From the IMG/VR virus record IMGVR_UViG_3300042892_002922, positions 128,001 to 192,000 of that record: DNA of 64,000 nucleotides, one strand, 5' to 3'. The notes beneath the pieces were generated by a model. That model worked only from the letters and a program-made list of their open reading frames with translations, made no database searches and had not been told where the DNA came from. This document shows, one piece after another, positions 8,982 to 53,315 of this stretch. The position numbers and the translations under genes were made by a program. How positions within the stretch are numbered: the first letter of the stretch is position 1; each line of letters begins with the position of its first letter. Source of the DNA: a virus (Duplodnaviria > Caudoviricetes).

Positions 8982-10367
8982 ATGTCGAAAGAAATGAATT
9001 TTGGTTATTTGGGTCCTAGATTCCAACAATCATTATTAAAAACAATTATTGAAGATAAAAAATTCGGTGATTCAATTGTTGAAGTTATCGAAAGCAACTA
9101 CTTTGATGGTGTGTATTTTAGAGTGATTATGGAACATATTAAAGAGTTGTATATAACCTTAAATTCAATACCAGCTTATGAAACTATTAAAAATAAAATT
9201 TTAATTGAAACAAAAGAAGGTTCATCGTCTTCTAAAGTTATTATTGACACATTAAGTGATATTCAAACTATAGAAATTAACGATGCATTGCACATTCAAG
9301 GCAGTGCCCTTAATTTCTGTAAACAACAAGTGTTAAAGAAAGCATTAAAAGAAGTTGAGGCGATAACTAATGACGGTGAATTTGAAGCATACAAAAGAAT
9401 TGAAAATATTATTCAAAAAGCACTACAGGTTGGTGTGATTGATCATGATATGACAGATATTTTTGACGATGTCATGTCGGCATTACAAAAAGATTGTAGA
9501 ACCGCTATACCAACAGGTGTTGTGGGCGTTGATAACTTATTAAAGGGTGGTCTAGGTAGAGGTGAGTTAGGTGTGGTATTAGCACCAACAGGTACTGGTA
9601 AAACAACGTTACTAACCAAGTTTGCGAACGCAGCGTTTAATAATGATTTTAATGTTGTTCAAATATTTTTTGAGGATAACGTCAATAATATTAAAAGAAA
9701 GCATTTTACAATTTGGTCTGGGATTGCGCCAGACGACCAAACAGAAGTTCCTGAAGAGGTTGAAAAAAGAGTTAATGAAGCCAAAGAAAGGTCTAAAGGT
9801 CAAATTAGGTTATTAAAATTACCTAGTGATTCTGTAACCGTTAGTGAAATTAAATCTAAATTAAGAAAGATGATTGCCGATGGTTTTAAAATAGATTTAT
9901 TAACACTGGACTATGTTGATTGTATTTCACCAGAAAGAAGTGCATTTGGTGAAGAATGGAAAGGTGAAGGTGCTATTATGAGACAATTGGAATCGATGAC
10001 TTCTGAGTTTGATATTGCAATCTGGACTGCAACACAAGGTAATAGAGAATCAATTAAAAGCGAAGTAGTTACAACGGACCAAATGGGTGGTTCTATTAAG
10101 AAAGCACAAATTGGTCACGTAGTTTTATCTATTGGTAAAACATTACAACAAAAAGAATTAAATTTGGCAACTCTTACATTGTTAAAATCTAGAGTTGGTA
10201 GAGATGGTGTTATATTTGATAACTGCCACTTTAACAATGAGTATTTAACGATTGATACTGATTCACAAAGCACTATGCTTGGTTTTGAACAAGACAAAGA
10301 AGAAAAAAACAAGCAAAGAATTAGAAAACTATTAGACGAGAAAACAAAAACTCGCGTAACTAACTAA
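8982..10367 (+). CDS. dnaB: Replicative DNA helicase (DnaB/gp41 family)
   Basis: IPTG...D..L.GG, Walker A APTGTGKT, LDYVD and WTATQGNR motifs. Confidence 0.92.
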   Translation: MSKEMNFGYLGPRFQQSLLKTIIEDKKFGDSIVEVIESNYFDGVYFRVIMEHIKELYITLNSIPAYETIKNKILIETKEGSSSSKVIIDTLSDIQTIEINDALHIQGSALNFCKQQVLKKALKEVEAITNDGEFEAYKRIENIIQKALQVGVIDHDMTDIFDDVMSALQKDCRTAIPTGVVGVDNLLKGGLGRGELGVVLAPTGTGKTTLLTKFANAAFNNDFNVVQIFFEDNVNNIKRKHFTIWSGIAPDDQTEVPEEVEKRVNEAKERSKGQIRLLKLPSDSVTVSEIKSKLRKMIADGFKIDLLTLDYVDCISPERSAFGEEWKGEGAIMRQLESMTSEFDIAIWTATQGNRESIKSEVVTTDQMGGSIKKAQIGHVVLSIGKTLQQKELNLATLTLLKSRVGRDGVIFDNCHFNNEYLTIDTDSQSTMLGFEQDKEEKNKQRIRKLLDEKTKTRVTN

Positions 10368-33088: not shown

Positions 33089-33134
33089 ACCTTTAGAATA
33101 ATTTGAAATAATAGTATATTTATAGTAGACAAAT

Positions 33135-36317: not shown

Positions 36318-37823
36318 ATGGCTAAAGGAGTAACAATAAATTTTACAATAGATTCGGATCATTCACAATCAAATTTTCCTCAATATGTTTATACTGGGTT
36401 AACTGCTGATAATGTGACTGGAACTACAATATGTAATGGGATAACCGCTAGCAGTTGTGCTTTAACAGGTTTAAGCGACACTTTAACACAAGTTTATGTA
36501 AAGATTAATTGCAATGGTTGTGACGACCAAATATTTTTGGTTTCATTAGTAGACCCAACACCAACAGCTACACCAACACCAACTTTAACAGCGACAGCTA
36601 CAAATACACCAACAAGTACACCTACTCAAACACCTACAAACACAACAACCGAAGGTGCGACCCCAACGGCCACGCCAACATTAACGCTAACAGCTACACC
36701 GACAAATACAACATCATCGGTTATAGACCCAACTCAAACAAGTACACCAACTCAAACACCGACAAATACTCAAACAAGCACACCAAGTGCAACATATGTT
36801 TACTATAAACTAAGACCTTGTGAGTATCAAGGATTTACTGGATATTTGGATGGCGATTATGATGTTTGGTCATATTCATTAGTTTCTGGAACATTTAGTA
36901 GTGGTGACAGAGTTGAAGGTAGTGCGAGTTACTATTATGTTGTTATGGGTTCTCAAATGGCAACTACTGACCCAACAGGTGGCGGTACGAAATATACCGT
37001 ATATGCTGTTGAGGGTGAAACAGGTTGTCCGGCACCACCACCATCAGCAACATTAAGAACGGCATATTTAACAGCGGCGTGGGCACATGATGGTTCAGTG
37101 GGTTATATACAACAATTAGCAGATACATGTGGATTATACCCATACCAAGCATCGTCATTGGGGTATACAGGTTTAACACAAGGTGGATCAACATCTTTCT
37201 ATGTTAATGAGGCGTCAATTGTACCAGGAACAATATACACATTATATGATTCAAATATAAGTGGTGGTGGTAATGTTGTAAATGGTGGTGACAAGTACTA
37301 CTCAATATTAATATATGGTAGTGGAAGTACATTCAACTATGTTGTTCGTATAAGTAGTTCGGGAGAATTAAGTGAATGGAATTATTGTACCACACCAACA
37401 CAAACACCAACTCCAACACCAACATTAACAGCAACACCGACATTAACACCTAGTGCGGCCGGGGCACCGGGGTCAGCATGTATTCAAATAACAGAATATT
37501 CTTCACAAGGTACCACTGAATGTTTATCTAATACTGTACCATATTTCTATACCGTTATTACAGCATTATTAACTGATGGTAATGGTAATGCAATGAATGC
37601 TGTTGGTGATGTATATGCCTATGTTAATGTTACGGTAGATGTCCTTTACCAGCAGGAAAATACATATGAATATCCAATTGAAATAAGTAGTGGAACAAGT
37701 TCGGGCACGCTTACCATTGATACATCAGTACCTGTAGATAATGGACAAGGTAATTGTGAAAATGAAACAAGAGTAATAAATTCTTATAGTGCACAAGTCG
37801 GATATAGTATATGCGCACCTTAA
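36318..37823 (+). CDS. Virion appendage protein with TPT linkers and Cys-rich domains
   Basis: TPT tracts, YYKLRPC, CNGCDD and GNCENET motifs. Confidence 0.65.
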
Positions 37824-45183: not shown

Positions 45184-47518
45184 TAACCCTTTTATTAAAG
45201 TTGAGTGGGAAGATACTCCAGAGAATCTTACCCAAGAAAGAATCAAACGTGTTAAATCGTATTTCCAAAACAAATACAATAGCACGAATGTTAAGATTGT
45301 TACAAAGACAATCAACAACTCATCCAATGCGAAGTTGAAATCGTTAGAGGCGTCTGATAATATATTGGACCCTCAATATCAAAAAAACTTGGTAAAGGAG
45401 TTCTTAACTGAGAACCAGTCAACAATTAAATGGGATTTTATAAATCGTTTAGATGACCGTGTTAATGGTGAAATTGATAAATTAAATCAGAACAAGGTTA
45501 GATATAATAAATGGTTTATTAAAAAGGTTGAATTCTCAAACTTCCTATCCTATGGTGAAGGGAACGTAATTGATTTTACGGATTTAGACGGCATCACAGT
45601 AATTGAATCAACACCTAAAAATTTTGGTGGTAAGTCAACCGCAACTGTTGATTTATTGATGTTTTTGTTCTTTAATTCAACAACCAAAACAAAAACTAAC
45701 GGAGAGATATTCAACAAGTTTTCCGATTCAGATGAAGTTAAGGTAAAAGGTGAGGTTACAATTGATGGTGATGATTATCTTATCAGTAGAACTATTACTC
45801 GCAAAAAAAGTAAGTCAGGTGAATACACGGTTAAAAATGATTTGGAGTTCTTTAAGAAATCACCAGAAGGCGAATTGATTAATTTATCTGGTGAACAAAG
45901 AAGAGAGACAGAGATATTAATTACATCCGCTATTGGAACTGAAGAAGATTTCTTATCTACAATTTTAACAACTGGTTATAACTTAGAAGAACTTATTGAA
46001 AGTAAACCAACTGCTAGAGGACAAATCATCACTAAATTTCTTGGGTTAGAATCCTTAAAACAAAAAGAGGATATTGCTAAAGAAATGTATAGCGAATGGA
46101 GTAAGAAGTTGGTTTCAAATACAAATAACAAAACAGATTTAGATGATCAGATTAAAACGTTTGAAGATTCAATTGGGAATTCTAACACACAAATTACTGA
46201 TTTAGGGGTTTCTTTAGATGGGTTTAAAGATACATTAAAAAATCTAGAAGATAGACGAGATTTAATATTGGGTCAAAAAAATAACGACATTGATGATGAC
46301 CTTATAAGAACTAACCCAACCTTGTTGCAAAGAGAGATTGAGGATCTTAAGCGTCTTCAAACATCTAGCAAAACTCAAGGCAATGATGTAAGTGTTGTAG
46401 AACCATCGCAGTATTATTTGGATGAAGAACACGATAAACTAAAAGACAAAGTTAATTCAATTGTTGTTGATGGTAAGCTCGTGAGTGAAACTATTACACG
46501 TAATGAAAATTTAGTTAATCAATTAGAGAAAGGTAGTGTATGTCCAACATGTCATAGAGCGTTAGATGAGGTTGACCACACTAGTGAGATTGAAAAAATT
46601 AAAAAGGAAATTGAGGGTTTAAAGGATAAACAAACAGAACTAAAATCTCAATACACCGAAGCAAACGACGCTGAAAAGTTATATGCTGCGATTAAAAAAG
46701 AATATGACGAATACGAAAGAAACAAACTTCGTAAAAGTAGATTCGAATTAGAGGTTGAACAAAAACAAGTTGAAATTGATTCTAAACAATCAAAGTTAGA
46801 CCGTTATGATAGTAACAAATCTAAATTGGAAAACAACCAAAAGATTGAGGCAGAAATCATCACTTTAAGAACTAAGATTGAAACAGCAAATGCTGATATC
46901 CAACAAACCTTAAATAATATTGAAAGACATAAAAATAATATTACCAATCTTAAAGAAAAGATTGAAAACAATATTAAGTTGATTGAAAAAATTAAGGGCG
47001 AGGAAGAATACTTACAAGTGTTTAAAACATACTTAATGGTATTTGGTAAGAATGGTATTTCAAAAGTCATATTAAAAAATATGATACCACTTCTAAATCA
47101 AGAGTTGTCTCGATTACTATTAGATAGTTCATACTTCACACTAGAGTTGAACATTAACGATAAGAACGAAGTTGAATTTATCATGATTGATAATGAAACC
47201 AGAGTAGTTAAACCACTTAACTCCGGATCTGGTTATGAAAGAACAATATCGTCACTAGCGTTAAGAAGTGTATTAACTAAAGTATCCTCGTTACCTAAAC
47301 CAAACATAGTGGTAATGGATGAGGTATTTGGTAAGATAGCTGATGAAAATTTAGAAATGGTTGGTGAGTTCTTTAAAAAGATTAAGAATTATTTCGAACA
47401 TATATTTGTTATCTCACACAACCCATTAATTAGAAACTGGTCGGATAATATTATTATGGTGAAGAAAGATGATAATATATCATCAATCGACTACATAACA
47501 CCTAAAATTAATTACTAA
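45176..47518 (+). CDS. sbcC: SbcC/Rad50/gp46-like ATPase with an N-terminal extension
   Basis: KKVEFSNFLSYG, Walker A GGKST, CPTC zinc hook, SGSGYE signature, VVMDE Walker B and ISH H-loop. Confidence 0.9.
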   Translation: MYNNPFIKVEWEDTPENLTQERIKRVKSYFQNKYNSTNVKIVTKTINNSSNAKLKSLEASDNILDPQYQKNLVKEFLTENQSTIKWDFINRLDDRVNGEIDKLNQNKVRYNKWFIKKVEFSNFLSYGEGNVIDFTDLDGITVIESTPKNFGGKSTATVDLLMFLFFNSTTKTKTNGEIFNKFSDSDEVKVKGEVTIDGDDYLISRTITRKKSKSGEYTVKNDLEFFKKSPEGELINLSGEQRRETEILITSAIGTEEDFLSTILTTGYNLEELIESKPTARGQIITKFLGLESLKQKEDIAKEMYSEWSKKLVSNTNNKTDLDDQIKTFEDSIGNSNTQITDLGVSLDGFKDTLKNLEDRRDLILGQKNNDIDDDLIRTNPTLLQREIEDLKRLQTSSKTQGNDVSVVEPSQYYLDEEHDKLKDKVNSIVVDGKLVSETITRNENLVNQLEKGSVCPTCHRALDEVDHTSEIEKIKKEIEGLKDKQTELKSQYTEANDAEKLYAAIKKEYDEYERNKLRKSRFELEVEQKQVEIDSKQSKLDRYDSNKSKLENNQKIEAEIITLRTKIETANADIQQTLNNIERHKNNITNLKEKIENNIKLIEKIKGEEEYLQVFKTYLMVFGKNGISKVILKNMIPLLNQELSRLLLDSSYFTLELNINDKNEVEFIMIDNETRVVKPLNSGSGYERTISSLALRSVLTKVSSLPKPNIVVMDEVFGKIADENLEMVGEFFKKIKNYFEHIFVISHNPLIRNWSDNIIMVKKDDNISSIDYITPKINY

Positions 47519-48330
47519 TCGTTTAAGTAACGATAAACGGTTAATAAACCTCTTTCAAAAATCTCCATCGTGATTTCACAATCTACTACAGCATTGTGAG
47601 CACCTTGGAGTTTTTTCTTTAATTGATTTATCTCATCATCAAACCCAGTGGCTAAAGATTTTAACGCATTTGATTTAGCACCACCTTCTTTGCCTGGGAA
47701 CTTATCTAGTTTAGCTTGATAATCAGGGTTATCTTTTGATATTGTGTTTAATATTGGGAAGAAGAAGTTTTTAAAGAAATTGATACTATCTATCATCTCA
47801 TCGGTGCTATCTTTAAAAATCTCGTGGAATTGAATCCATTTTAAATCAAATGGTGCGTTGTGTGCAATTAAAGTAACGTTTTCATGTTCTTTTAAAAACT
47901 CATCAAACTTTTCTAATGCGTTTCTTTCTTCTTCATATGATTCGCTATTTGCTAAATCATAGTGATTAAATTTTAGAATGCCCTTTTTAGTGTTAAATAA
48001 CCATCTTTTATATTCGTCACTTTCTTCATCTTCTGGAGCGTCTGGCTCGGTAGTCATCTGTTGAAGAGTTTCGTCATTTAATTTAATACCAATATTAAAT
48101 CTACCTAATTCAAAAAATCTTAATGTCTCACCATTTATTTGAGTCGCAATTGCTGCGATTTGTGTTAATTGGTTAGCAGGTCTACCTGCTGGGTTACGAT
48201 CTAAACCGGTGGTTTCGGTATCAAAAAAGACAAAAGTGTGGTTAACTCTTTTTAAAAACCAATCTAAAAGTTTTTCACTAGGTAACCCACCAACCTCAAT
48301 TTCACGTATAATTTTGGACATTTTAATCAT
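47515..48330 (-). CDS. DEDDh 3'-5' exonuclease (DnaQ-like)
   Basis: FFDTETTGL, AHNAPFD and AHNAVVD motifs. Start refined to 48330 (or 48321), downstream of a minus-strand TATTTAT at 48335-48341. Confidence 0.85.
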   Translation of the reverse strand: MIKMSKIIREIEVGGLPSEKLLDWFLKRVNHTFVFFDTETTGLDRNPAGRPANQLTQIAAIATQINGETLRFFELGRFNIGIKLNDETLQQMTTEPDAPEDEESDEYKRWLFNTKKGILKFNHYDLANSESYEEERNALEKFDEFLKEHENVTLIAHNAPFDLKWIQFHEIFKDSTDEMIDSINFFKNFFFPILNTISKDNPDYQAKLDKFPGKEGGAKSNALKSLATGFDDEINQLKKKLQGAHNAVVDCEITMEIFERGLLTVYRYLND

Positions 48331-48410
48331 AACAATAAATATTAGAAAAACATTGTTTTTTATTACGGGGATTTTTAAGTATATTTGTTCCATACTAAAT
48401 TAAATCTACC

Positions 48411-49082
48411 ATGACACCCAAAGATTACAAAGATTTCGGTTTGTACGCAAAAGACCGCGGAATTAGTTCCTTAAACATGCATTATCATCAAAAAAATATT
48501 GAGGGTAGTTTAACTCCATACGTCTTAGAGGAAAGACAACTGAACGTTACACAAATGGATGTGTTTTCACGTTTAATGATGGAAAGAATTATTTGGGTGG
48601 CCGGTGAGGTTAATGATAATATGTCGGTTATAACTCAAGCACAGTTAATGTTCTTGGACAGTTTAGATACTAATGACATAACTATGCATATCGATACCCC
48701 AGGCGGAAGCGTTAAATCTGGTTTATCAATGGTTGATGTTATGGATTACATTAAGTCCGATATTAGGACGATTAATACTGGAATGGCTGCATCTATGGGT
48801 TCAATCCTTTTAGGGGCAGGAACGAAGGGAAAACGCGGTTCATTGAGATTCTCAAGAACAATGTTACACCAATCATCTGGAGGTTTTAGAGGTAACATTC
48901 AAGATGCTAAGATTGATATGGTTGAGTGGGATAAATTAAATAACACATTATTTGACCTATTGGGTGGTTATTGTGGTAAAACAGGTGAACAAGTTAAACA
49001 AGATGCGTCTAGGGATCTCTGGTTGAGTTCTGAAGATGCTTTAGCATACGGTATTATTGACGAAGTTGTCAAAAGAAAATAG
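48411..49082 (+). CDS. clpP: ATP-dependent Clp protease proteolytic subunit
   Basis: DVFSRLMMERII, IDTPGGSV, GMAASMG (Ser), MLHQ (His) and RDLW (Asp) motifs. Confidence 0.95.
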   Translation: MTPKDYKDFGLYAKDRGISSLNMHYHQKNIEGSLTPYVLEERQLNVTQMDVFSRLMMERIIWVAGEVNDNMSVITQAQLMFLDSLDTNDITMHIDTPGGSVKSGLSMVDVMDYIKSDIRTINTGMAASMGSILLGAGTKGKRGSLRFSRTMLHQSSGGFRGNIQDAKIDMVEWDKLNNTLFDLLGGYCGKTGEQVKQDASRDLWLSSEDALAYGIIDEVVKRK

Positions 49083-49113
49083 GGTTAATTTATTCAACAT
49101 TTTGGTTTCAACA

Positions 49114-49143
49114 AAAAGGGAAGTTTTTAACTTCCCTTTTTTT
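49114..49143 (+). terminator. Rho-independent terminator (symmetrical)
   Basis: AAAAGGGAAGTT-TTT-AACTTCCCTTTT. Confidence 0.85.
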
Positions 49144-49166
49144 ATTTATTCCCTTATATTTATTTC

Positions 49167-49260
49167 TAGACCTTGTGGTTGAAGTCGAAGTGTCCCAGAG
49201 GCATTTGAGTTGGAATTGATACCAACGAATTCGGGTTCAAATACAAAAAAATATAAGGAA
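49167..49260 (+). ncRNA. Structured 5' leader whose first 14 nt pair with the 3' UTR of the same transcript
   Basis: TAGACCTTGTGGTT (49167-49180) is complementary to AATCACAAGGTCTA (50107-50120). Internal hairpin GTTGG-N8-CCAAC and an ATTTGAG/TTCAAAT stem. Confidence 0.55.
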
Positions 49261-50100
49261 ATGAACAGAAGAATTTCAGTTAACACAACTGGTCTTGCTG
49301 TACCACAATCTTTCATTACTAAAGGTAAACAAAGATTAAAACAGCACATTGACACCGTATATCTTAATAACGGTGATGAGTTCGAAATCGAACTTTTTAA
49401 TCCAACACACAATAAAGTTTTAGCAAAAATTGAGATGAATGGTAATGCCGTTGGTAATGGTATTATAATTCGTCCAGGTGAACGCGTTTTCCTCGAAAGA
49501 TATCTTGATGAGGCAAAGAAGTTTTTATTTGAAACATATGTTGTAAATGGTGATAATTTAGAAGTACAAGAAGCAATTGCTGATAATGGTGATGTGGTTA
49601 TTAAGTTCTATAACGAAACGCCTCCACCGACATATTATAGCGGTAATTCAGGCACGTTAACGATATCTAACCCAGGTTGGATAAACAACACGGGGACACC
49701 ATTTACCTACACTACACATAATACTTTAGGTATGAATACATTTAATCCTACTAGTATTACAACAACGGGAACAAATGCGGTTTATACTTCCAATTCATCT
49801 TTAACAAGTGGAACGTTTAGTACCTCAAATACATTCTTAAACAACCCCGATAAGGTTAAAAAATCTAAAAGACAGGTTGAAACAGGTAGAGTTGAAAAGG
49901 GTTCCAATTCTAATCAATCCTTTACATACGATAGTACATCTTTCAATAGTTGGGCGTCTAACACAAATTGGTGGAAAATAAAACCCAAATCAACTCAATT
50001 GGTAACAATGGATGATTTGGCTACATATTGCACTGAATGTGGCAGTAGAAGGAAAAAAGACACATATAAGTTCTGCCCACAATGTGGCACAAAATACTAA
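49261..50100 (+). CDS. Hypothetical protein with an N-terminal beta domain and a C-terminal zinc ribbon
   Basis: CTECG...CPQCG zinc ribbon. Start moved to ATG 49261, which follows AAGGAA; the track start at 49210 lies inside the structured leader. Confidence 0.75.
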   Translation: MNRRISVNTTGLAVPQSFITKGKQRLKQHIDTVYLNNGDEFEIELFNPTHNKVLAKIEMNGNAVGNGIIIRPGERVFLERYLDEAKKFLFETYVVNGDNLEVQEAIADNGDVVIKFYNETPPPTYYSGNSGTLTISNPGWINNTGTPFTYTTHNTLGMNTFNPTSITTTGTNAVYTSNSSLTSGTFSTSNTFLNNPDKVKKSKRQVETGRVEKGSNSNQSFTYDSTSFNSWASNTNWWKIKPKSTQLVTMDDLATYCTECGSRRKKDTYKFCPQCGTKY

Positions 50101-50125
50101 TAAACTAATCACAAGGTCTAACTCT

Positions 50126-50148
50126 GAGGTCGCTTTTGCGACCTCTTT
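50126..50148 (+). terminator. GC-rich hairpin / terminator
   Basis: GAGGTCGC-TTTT-GCGACCTC perfect stem with a short T tract. Confidence 0.7.
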
Positions 50149-50171
50149 GTATTTATAATAAAACAGATAAT

Positions 50172-50507
50172 ATGAAGATTGATAAAACAAACATCCTATT
50201 AGTTTTGATTGCTTGTTTGGCTGGCTATACCATATTTCAAAATCAAGGTATAAAAACTGACGTTGCGGGTTATAACGCTAAAATTGAATCCTTACAAAAG
50301 GAAATTGATTCGGTTTATATTGCAAACAAAGAAATAGACAATCAAATCGAAAAAGTTGATAATCACATTGTTAATGTTGATAAAGATATCGACAACGTGA
50401 CAAAAAACATAACTATTATTAAAAACAACACAGATGAAAAAGTTAATTCTATTACTACTATTGGTAATGTTGAGCTTGAGCAGTTATTCGCAAACAGATA
50501 CAACTAA
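50172..50507 (+). CDS. Membrane-anchored coiled-coil protein (i-spanin-like)
   Basis: N-terminal TM helix and long heptads. Start moved to ATG 50172, after TATTTAT. Confidence 0.5.
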   Translation: MKIDKTNILLVLIACLAGYTIFQNQGIKTDVAGYNAKIESLQKEIDSVYIANKEIDNQIEKVDNHIVNVDKDIDNVTKNITIIKNNTDEKVNSITTIGNVELEQLFANRYN

Positions 50508-50859
50508 AGTTATTGTATTAGATACTACTAAAGTTACTATAACAACAAAAGTTGCTAGATTAGTATTTCAAGATTTGCTTCGTTACGACGGTGCTAAGTT
50601 AGAAATTATTGAGTTAAATAAAGTAATAACACTAAAAGACGAACAAATTGGTTTGTTTAAACAAAAAGACACTTTAAAAGACCAAAAAATAACAAACTTA
50701 GAAGTTATTATTTCTAAGAAAGATGAACAGTTTGGTTTAGAAAGACAAAAATCTGAAAGTTTATTAAAAGAACTTAAAGGGCAAAGAACCAAAACATTTT
50801 TATATAAAGTTGGAACTTATGTCGGGATAATTGCTACTAGTATATTATTGATTAAGTAA
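50434..50859 (+). CDS. Signal-peptide coiled-coil protein with a C-terminal hydrophobic helix (spanin-partner-like)
   Basis: MKKLILLLLLVMLSLSSYS-Q signal peptide; overlaps the previous gene by 74 nt. Confidence 0.5.
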   Translation: MKKLILLLLLVMLSLSSYSQTDTTKVIVLDTTKVTITTKVARLVFQDLLRYDGAKLEIIELNKVITLKDEQIGLFKQKDTLKDQKITNLEVIISKKDEQFGLERQKSESLLKELKGQRTKTFLYKVGTYVGIIATSILLIK

Positions 50860-52467: not shown

Positions 52468-52508
52468 GTGGAAAAATCGTACTATTGCTATACAAAACCC
52501 AAAAACGA

Positions 52509-53315
52509 ATGAAAAATACCAGCCCAATGGTTAAAACCGAAGAACTAAAATATTACATCAAGGATTTAAAAAGAATCCCAGTAATAGAAGCGCAAAGAGA
52601 ATTTGAAATTTTCATGGCGTTTAAAAACAAAGAGACAACCAAAGAACAAAAAAACGCTTTAGTTGAAGAATTGATTTTAGGTAATTTAAGATTTGTTATT
52701 TCCGTTGCTAAGATGTATCAAAATCAAGGAATGGATTTATTGGATTTAATTTCAGAAGGTAATATTGGTTTAATGAAAGCCATTGATCGCTTTGACGTTA
52801 CTTCTGGTTTTAAATTTATATCATATGCTGTGTGGTGGGTGAAACAATCTATAATGCAGTCGTTAACGGAAAATTCAAGAACAATAAGAATACCGTCAAA
52901 CGTTTTGCAAGATATTCAAAAGCAAAAGAAAATAAAAAATGAAGAGGATAGTTACCTTATTGAATACAATGATAATGTTTTAATCGGTATTCCAACAACA
53001 GTTGATTTATATAAAGAAATAAATGAAGATGGTGACACATTAATAGAAGTTATTGCTAATCCTAATTCAATTGACCCTATGGAATCTATGAATAATCTTG
53101 ATGAGATTAAGAAAAAGATGAAGTATATGTTAGCAATCCTAGATGACAGAGAGAAAACCATTATTGAGGGTTATTTTGGTTTGTGTGGTACCGAAAGAAA
53201 CCTAGATGACCTAGGTGAAGAATTTGGTTGCACCAAAGAACGTATTAGACAATTAAAAGATAAAGCAATTAAGAAATTGCGAAACGAGAGTTTTGGACTC
53301 CTAAACTATTTATAA
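52509..53315 (+). CDS. Sigma-70 family RNA polymerase sigma factor (RpoD/RpoS-like)
   Basis: GNLRFVISVAKMY, DLISEGNIGLMKAIDRFD, FKFISYAVWWVKQSI and region 4 TKERIRQLKDKAIKKLR. Confidence 0.93.
   Translation: MKNTSPMVKTEELKYYIKDLKRIPVIEAQREFEIFMAFKNKETTKEQKNALVEELILGNLRFVISVAKMYQNQGMDLLDLISEGNIGLMKAIDRFDVTSGFKFISYAVWWVKQSIMQSLTENSRTIRIPSNVLQDIQKQKKIKNEEDSYLIEYNDNVLIGIPTTVDLYKEINEDGDTLIEVIANPNSIDPMESMNNLDEIKKKMKYMLAILDDREKTIIEGYFGLCGTERNLDDLGEEFGCTKERIRQLKDKAIKKLRNESFGLLNYL

Follow-up and report, generated by a model that had tools for sequence, protein, structure and literature searches.

The window analyzed here is the whole of a 64,000-nucleotide (nt) stretch of DNA (positions 128,001 to 192,000 of IMG/VR record IMGVR_UViG_3300042892_002922), an AT-rich (~32% GC) part of a large phage genome whose relatives are IMG/VR contigs of 200–330 kb. 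It carries a gene for a 279-amino-acid (aa) zinc-ribbon protein that is enclosed by two short complementary segments, and comparison with homologous loci identifies this end-paired cassette as a conserved cis-acting mRNA architecture and not a DNA site. The segment at the putative 5' end of the mRNA is predicted to pair with a box just past the stop codon, in a helix that we call P1, and to lead directly into a leader folded as a three-way junction. This RNA structure, the end helix together with the leader, is almost certainly real, about as certain as comparative analysis of sequences allows.

Complementary ends of the transcript

All coordinates of the cassette and its flanks refer to the + strand. 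The open reading frame (ORF) of the gene spans 49261–50100, with its stop codon TAA at 50098–50100. The 5' arm of P1 (49167–49181; core 49167–49179) is the putative 5' end of the mRNA and opens a leader of 94 nt (49167–49260), counted from this probable start to the ORF. The 3' arm (50106–50120) lies 5 nt past the stop codon and 5 nt before the hairpin of the cassette's intrinsic terminator (50126–50149), which has an 8-base-pair (bp) stem and a 4-nt loop (50126–50145) and ends in a T-rich tail. A promoter-like box, TATATTTAT (49155–49163, including TATTTAT at 49157–49163), lies 3 nt before the first paired base, and in relatives a box of the form TATAyTTAT or GATATATAAA is located 2–5 nt 5' of the 5' arm. 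Transcription of the cassette probably starts at the 5' arm, the promoter being recognized as this conserved box. Re-inspection bore out the layout and coordinates of the TATTTAT box, arms, stop codon, terminator and 94-nt leader, as they had been given in an earlier reading of the window made without database searches (hereafter the sequence-only reading).

The complementarity of the two arms is real, comprising 13 Watson-Crick and two G·U pairs (G49178·U50109 and G49181·U50106), and the minimum free energy fold of the complete 984-nt transcript includes exactly this 15-bp helix. Taken alone, P1 is not beyond chance in the window: a search of the + strand for 14-nt inverted repeats with at most one G·U and a spacing of 300–1500 nt found 10 comparable repeats, against a mean of 10.0 in 30 shuffles. 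Its significance therefore rests on comparison with relatives, for which we fetched ~200 loci from viral contigs, two from metagenome-assembled genomes (MAGs) and five from huge-phage genomes.

Among 67 distinct loci of a close set, pairs were counted from a conserved CCUUGU/ACAAGG core used as the anchor. Offsets −1 to +5 are essentially invariant, with at most one exception per position, and the pairs around them covary: G-C 26 and A-U 32 at −2; A-U 46 and U-A 11 at −3; G-C 22, A-U 11 and U-A 10 at −4; G-C 41 and U-A 21 at +6; and G·U 44 and A-U 13 at +7. A test that needs no anchor gave the same helix a broader basis. When a 32-nt window at the 5' side of the leader was folded against the 72 nt past the stop codon at 99 distinct loci, the mean duplex energy was −21.7 kcal/mol with the locus's own 3' flank, −10.1 kcal/mol with that flank reversed and −14.6 kcal/mol with the flank of another locus; energies of −12 kcal/mol or better were reached by 97 of the 99 loci with their own flanks and by 22% with reversed flanks. 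The arm sequence itself turns over completely, with at least 11 unrelated arms among homologous loci, some of which form 22–24 bp. Examples are AGACCUUGUGGUU, GAAACCUUGUUG, AUAACCUUGUGAU, GUAUUGAAAGGUGCCUUUCGUAC (22–24 bp) and AAAGUGGUGCC, further ACAUAGAGCCUCGCUC, UUAGAGCCUGAC, GAAACACCCAUAACUUUG, UAUAGCGCCAAUAAC and AAAGCACCUUAAC, and, in the 462-kb phage LR756500, UCUCACUUUGUU.

Pair types and spacing were taken from a narrower fold, of a 26-nt 5' window against 57 nt of 3' flank. Its 1,421 predicted pairs include 118 G·U or U·G, and there is just one A·C among the 1×1 mismatches; P1 pairing therefore acts in + strand RNA, as the sequence-only reading had argued from the G-T positions of the window. 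The helix has a median length of 14 bp. The 3' arm begins 2–30 nt past the stop codon (median 8, interquartile range 6–9; 97 of the 99 loci), which, from ribosome footprints, would put it just beyond the reach of a terminating ribosome. The terminator stem follows a median of 5 nt after the 3' arm, and a hairpin with a T-run is present behind the arm at no fewer than 51 of 97 loci by a crude test and at nearly all by eye. The box past the stop codon was already conserved in the first set of relatives. The proposal that a monocistronic transcript closes on itself, its 5' end pairing with its 3' untranslated region (UTR), is upheld by this covariation across ~100 distinct loci, and the compensatory changes that had been suggested as a check are found in homologues both in the P1 arms and in the leader.

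In the window the 8-mer ACCTTGTG or its complement is found seven times, where 1.7 would be expected; none of 100 shuffles has as many. The five extra copies of ACCTTGTG are at 10033, 36815, 37177, 37504 and 56765, three of them in the ORF 36318–37823; within the window, all copies of ACCTTGTG/CACAAGGT outside the cassette are coding and none lies beside a terminator.

The three-way-junction leader

RNAalifold, applied to 67 distinct leaders, gave a three-way junction that occupies 49180–49239 in the window and is also backed by pair counts and a covariance model. Its stalk, helix A, has nine pairs in two runs (49180–49183 and 49185–49189 with 49230–49234 and 49236–49239; UGAA.UCGAA / UUCGG.UUCA), with one unpaired base per strand between them (G49184 and G49235). 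It encloses the hairpins P2a (49190–49194/49200–49204) and P2b (49209–49213/49222–49226), which are separated by the junction strand UUGA (49205–49208); a second strand, GAA (49227–49229), connects P2b to the 3' strand of helix A. The consensus of these strands is U(U/A)GA and (G/A)A(A/U). Helix A begins where the core of the P1 5' strand stops and is contiguous with P1 on that strand, positions 49180–49181 being the optional last two pairs of P1, in competition with the first two pairs of helix A. An A-rich spacer (49240–49260), unpaired in leader folds of the window's clade, leads to the ORF and includes a Shine-Dalgarno (SD)-like UAAGGA (49254–49259) that is conserved in the leader alignment.

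In the first set of relatives the leader is nearly invariant where the protein falls to 40–60% identity. At the retained helices 98% of alignment cells pair, against 32–49% in slid controls, and their covariation score was reached by 0 of 500 shuffles. The UGAA/UUCA pairs covary, as G-C 60 / A-U 7 and as A-U 36 / G·U 18 / G-C 8 / U-A 4. A broader leader alignment, which is model-fitted and leans towards the structure, has both-sided changes at 18 of 19 pairs.

A covariance model (R1) made from the RNAalifold-based alignment scores 104 bits at its single strong match in the window; the nearest record also has one match. There is exactly one match, directly 5' of the gene, in 84 of 85 loci; a MAG locus outside the training set scores 85.9 bits, and matches are correctly placed at 40 of 81 distant loci and also in LR756504 and LR756500. 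Rfam 15 gave nothing at the gathering threshold across the window, in which the motif, split by the 840-nt ORF, is not scannable as one piece, and at E up to 10 it gave sub-threshold matches only, driven by terminators. ARAGORN found no tRNA or tmRNA in the window. The leader is a new RNA, a three-way junction without counterpart in Rfam that each genome carries once.

Two leader stems had been proposed from the window. The first, GTTGG-N8-CCAAC, is supported, and the second, ATTTGAG/TTCAAAT, is not, having no compensatory change and seven broken cells. TTCA is assigned instead to TGAA at 49180–49183 because the TGAA/TTCA pairing covaries. For the same reason a by-eye reading of ATTTGAG/TTCAAAT as a pseudoknot crossing the TCGAA/TTCGG helix was dropped, since the nested, covarying UGAA/UUCA fits instead. 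A further pseudoknot suggested earlier, CAGAG with CTCTG, turned out not to be conserved: 5 bp or more are possible in 33% of loci, against 29 ± 4% with permuted partners. A hammerhead-like core (UGAUGAG in one clade) was considered and set aside, as it is unconserved across clades and has no GAAA after the stem. Two loci (L177 and L178) have a tRNA-like sequence, GGAAGAUUGGCAGAGUGG...GGUUCGAAUCC..., ~90 nt 5' of the leader and ending a few nt before the 5' arm.

Possible functions of the closed mRNA

The most likely function, held with moderate confidence, is closure of the mRNA, which would protect the message and control its translation; a protein is probably bound at the junction. The mechanism would resemble that of the hbs and hok tac/fbi interactions (see below). 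Transcription would run from the promoter box of the cassette to the cassette's own terminator, and the first ~13–15 nt of the transcript would pair with the box just past the stop codon, turning the whole coding region into a loop. The triphosphate 5' end would then be held in a duplex next to the terminator hairpin, and the 5' strand of P1 would lead directly into the 60-nt three-way junction and from there to the A-rich spacer and UAAGGA. Closed ends may protect against attack that depends on the 5' end and against exonucleases acting from the 3' end, and the pairing may set the leader fold, so that translation starts at a defined and accessible site. A protein, possibly the gene's own zinc-ribbon product, would most likely dock at the invariant nucleotides of the junction. 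The comparison shows the helices, their conservation and their action in RNA; consequences for mRNA stability or translation are inferred, as is a protein partner.

Logan contigs from four freshwater/river metatranscriptome runs, where DNA carry-over is possible, contain relatives of the leader and of the gene's 5' portion. No back-splice joint was seen in these four runs, in a weak test made on contigs only, and circularisation, one of the options raised in the sequence-only reading, found no support there.

Several points weigh against mRNA closure as the function. The most distant homologues, those of Lak phages, LR756504 and LR756508 (33–38% protein identity), keep the protein and have no convincing P1, so that P1 is dispensable in some lineages, and in several clades it has just 11–13 bp. 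End protection alone leaves the kept three-way junction and its invariant bases unexplained. The metatranscriptome contigs extend into the promoter region and so are uninformative on the start.

An autogenous operator, in which the zinc-ribbon protein would bind the junction and/or P1 of its own mRNA and repress or activate translation, is unlikely, though it deserves serious weight and could be compatible with end protection. Autogenous translational control has precedents in phage T4 gp32, RegA and ribosomal-protein leaders, and zinc ribbons are often nucleic-acid binders, which counts for this explanation. So do a leader that is better conserved than the protein, near-invariant junction bases, an element that is specific to the gene and occurs once per genome, and the four invariant Cys and invariant polar residues of the protein. 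However, the protein has no recognized RNA-binding fold, since its sandwich resembles generic Ig/MSP-like folds (Z ~6.5) and its other matches are uncharacterised viral proteins, and the zinc ribbon persists in Lak phages, where P1 is not seen.

Rather improbable is a three-state device that checks the completeness of the transcript. The 5' arm would be parked on a local partner during transcription (in a large clade, the ribosome-binding region) until the post-stop box captured it, which would open the ribosome-binding site, build the junction platform and seal the ends; the platform would serve a protein, perhaps the gene's own zinc-ribbon product. If this were true, translation and retention would be reserved for full-length messages, which decay from the 3' end would silence again.

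Quite doubtful too is a co-transcriptional switch that would license complete transcripts, late capture by the 3' arm freeing the ribosome-binding site and 3' decay masking it again, a logic like that of hok (see below) with the opposite sign. Leaders folded by themselves place the 5' arm on the AAUAAGG ribosome-binding region (7 bp) in ~27 of 67 distinct cases and, in most of the rest, those of the window's clade included, on UACAA just past helix A; the 3' arm of close clades (ACAAGG) mimics the SD region (AUAAGG); the offset +6 pair with the base before the SD is G·U, U-A and G-C in the three main clades; and the tac element of hok has a similar metastable local pairing (PMC9841398). Against these, the basis is purely thermodynamic prediction, and the local partner predicted for the window's clade leaves the SD free. 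The extra pair is also broken in several small clades, and the 5' arms of many distant clades have no CCUU-like anti-SD core.

It is very unlikely that P1 stacked on helix A forms an RNase III stalk of ~22–24 bp that is cut to yield a processed, stable mRNA. RNase III processing is familiar from rRNA precursors and T7 early mRNAs, helix A directly continues P1 on the 5' strand, and some clades have arms of 22–24 bp; many, however, have just 11–13 bp, and the covariation keeps pairing and shows no conserved internal-loop signature. A metabolite-sensing riboswitch with the three-way junction as its aptamer is highly improbable: the junction is compact, with conserved unpaired purines and covarying helices, but Rfam offers no matching family even with E up to 10, nothing links the gene to metabolism, the aptamer is not overlapped by any obvious expression platform and the hairpin loops are variable.

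Genomic context of the cassette

Upstream of the cassette is a ClpP-like gene (48411–49082; Pfam CLP_protease, E = 2e-54), whose intrinsic terminator (49113–49141) sets the left limit for the transcript start. It is followed by a first TATTTAT box (49143–49149), matching the one in front of the next gene in relatives without the cassette. Downstream, the next gene (p111) has a TATTTAT box of its own at 50150–50156 and its ATG at 50172. These neighbours are common to only seven of 36 loci; in the other 29 the gene lies in other neighbourhoods, and some loci with other neighbours encode proteins that are 85% identical.

Empty sites were searched for with the gene two places downstream (50434–50859) as the query. 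At 13 or more related loci ClpP and p111 are ~70 nt apart, with no zinc-ribbon gene between them, and p111 is up to 96% identical to that of the window; the ~70 nt correspond to the terminator and TATTTAT. The slot comparison comprised L205–L211, L213, L216–L218, L221, L223, L238, L229 and L212. Comparison of filled with empty sites in close relatives places the extra DNA at ~49150–50149, which takes in the promoter box and the terminator; on the left its border lies 17 nt beyond the 5' arm, and on the right 29 nt beyond the 3' arm. A direct repeat of the terminator end plus TATTTAT (49135–49149 / 50142–50156) flanks the extra DNA. The P1 arms lie inside these borders and are therefore not the ends of mobile DNA.

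That the arms act at the DNA level, either in recombination or as the terminal inverted repeats of a transposon, is largely refuted and scarcely credible. The presence or absence of the cassette between ClpP and p111 and its varied neighbourhoods would suit such an element, but the inserted DNA reaches beyond both arms, G·U pairs are common and A·C almost absent, the 5' arm is contiguous with covarying RNA helices, one copy is present in the window and in the nearest record, and Pfam and PHROG reveal no transposase or recombinase domain.

The ClpP/p111 slot is a hot spot for cassettes. The zinc-ribbon cassette occupies it in the window and at seven loci; L229 carries a ~170-aa ORF with an NPPYG motif, resembling an adenine methyltransferase, and L212 has a different insert of ~870 nt. 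By its layout the cassette behaves like a moron, with a terminator and a putative promoter (the box) of its own between genes that are adjacent in relatives, and the terminator scan places terminators on both sides of its gene. The gene was not found elsewhere in two related contigs that have no slot copy, which are fragments, 65% and 36% complete.

TATTTAT occurs 34 times in the window, against 50 expected, with 26 occurrences on the + strand, many of them 4–15 nt before a start codon (for example at 33117, 34849, 36005, 37843, 50150 and 61309); this placement would suit a phage promoter whose transcripts have very short leaders. A phage sigma-70-like gene is located at 52485–53315 (Pfam Sigma70_r2 and r4). 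A DEDD-type exonuclease gene (47515–48393, − strand; Pfam RNase_T, E = 1.5e-9) lies between an SbcC-like gene and ClpP, and only one of 36 related loci has such a gene at the corresponding place.

The zinc-ribbon protein

The protein has 2,378 relatives in 90% clusters, and 1,516 clusters at 50% identity, nearly all viral or unnamed. Homologues are present in all Lak megaphages and in several phages of 460–735 kb; among bacterial genomes the gene was seen in two MAG contigs only, which are probably phage. Reassignment of TAG has been reported for Lak phages, and in agreement with this the homologues of L200 (Lak-A1, MK250016.1) and L204 (Lak-B5, MK250024.1) have in-frame TAG codons, with the zinc ribbon kept.

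An AlphaFold model built on a 69-sequence alignment (pLDDT 83.5; a single-sequence model with pLDDT 34 was discarded) predicts a beta-sandwich from residues ~15–120 and strands 205–242, a disordered insert rich in Thr, Ser and Asn, and a C-terminal CxxC...CxxC zinc ribbon. C257, C260, C272 and C275 are invariant in the 69 sequences, together with a set of polar residues. Pfam Zn_Ribbon_1 (PF13240) scores 21.7 bits on the 279-aa protein, against a cut-off of 25, and PHROGs has no match for it. Fold searches returned just generic Ig/MSP-like sandwiches (Z ≤ 6.6) and uncharacterised viral proteins, which imply no function, and an Atlas search returned only 'hypothetical protein' clusters. The viral proteins come from phages and, as Foldseek matches with E 1e-9 to 1e-3 and TM 0.3–0.7, from giant viruses (Pithovirus, Marseillevirus, Mimiviridae), nudiviruses, nimaviruses (Wsv390), granuloviruses (P22.2) and iridoviruses (ICP-18). 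The predicted combination of beta-sandwich and zinc ribbon may be an old viral fold.

Comparison with known systems

Intramolecular pairing of mRNA 5' and 3' ends is, to our knowledge, described in bacteria for a few cases only (hok relatives, hbs and icaR), mostly in single species. The statement of the sequence-only reading that no named system has this layout was too strong, as it is shared by hbs (PMC5737220) and by the tac/fbi pairing of hok (PMC9841398).

The closest known system in layout is hbs of B. subtilis, where a 14-nt interaction between the leader and the 3' UTR (ΔG −19 kcal/mol), just 5' of the terminator, limits RNase Y cleavage, as shown by compensatory mutagenesis (Braun, Durand & Condon 2017, PMC5737220). 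The phage transcript likewise has complementary boxes in its 5' UTR and its pre-terminator 3' UTR, joined by a helix of ~14 bp (ΔG ~−19 to −22 kcal/mol), and both messages are short and monocistronic, a strong ribosome-binding site following a leader that is highly structured. The 5' partner in hbs, however, lies inside the leader, past two hairpins, whereas the phage arm is at the extreme 5' end; hbs has no comparable three-way junction and is a nucleoid-protein gene of a Firmicute host; and its support is mutagenesis in one species, whereas that of the phage element is covariation at ~100 loci, from sequence only.

In hok, the very 5' end of the mRNA (tac) pairs with the 3' end (fbi) to give a closed, stable and silent mRNA, which becomes active when its 3' end is trimmed; the locus encodes a small membrane toxin and, overlapping it, the mok frame, with Sok as the antisense RNA (PMC9841398). 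The phage mRNA shares the pairing of its 5' terminus with its own 3' end, and the transient local partner of the 5' element that is known for hok is predicted for it too. Its ORF, however, encodes a soluble protein of 279 aa with a beta-sandwich and a zinc ribbon and not a small hydrophobic toxin, which places the cassette outside the hok family. No antisense RNA was seen, although no search aimed at one was made, and whereas the closed form of hok is silent, that of the phage mRNA is predicted to leave the ribosome-binding site unpaired.

The icaR mRNA of S. aureus is described as pairing its 5' and 3' UTRs (PMC3868564). In common with the phage cassette, a box in the 3' UTR thus finds its partner in the 5' UTR of one and the same message. 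The icaR box reportedly pairs with the SD region, blocks translation and invites RNase III, whereas the partner of the phage box is the 5' terminus, which lies ~75 nt before the ribosome-binding site. Morons and PeSL-type cassettes of lambdoid and T4-type phages are defined at the level of DNA and transcription. The phage cassette resembles them as a self-contained unit of promoter, gene and terminator that is present or absent, in a slot that carries other cargo in relatives, but its gene-specific, covarying end pairing and its junction RNA lie outside the moron definition.

The gene is among the more widespread function-unassigned genes of huge Bacteroidota phages (~1,500 clusters at 50% identity), and the element offers an entry point to the function of its protein. 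Bacteroidota mostly do without SD-led initiation. The loci form a ready set of natural compensatory mutants with which mRNA closure can be related to stability and translation. The element differs from the known systems in combining a 5'-terminal arm with a new junction RNA, in a ribosome-binding site predicted to stay free in the closed form, in being a phage cassette and in its very broad natural covariation. Comparative analysis thus makes the phage gene a well-supported new case of a closed bacterial-type mRNA, the purpose of which we infer, and the same principle of end pairing that hok, hbs and icaR exemplify is now backed by ~100 distinct phage loci across which the sequence of the arms has completely turned over.

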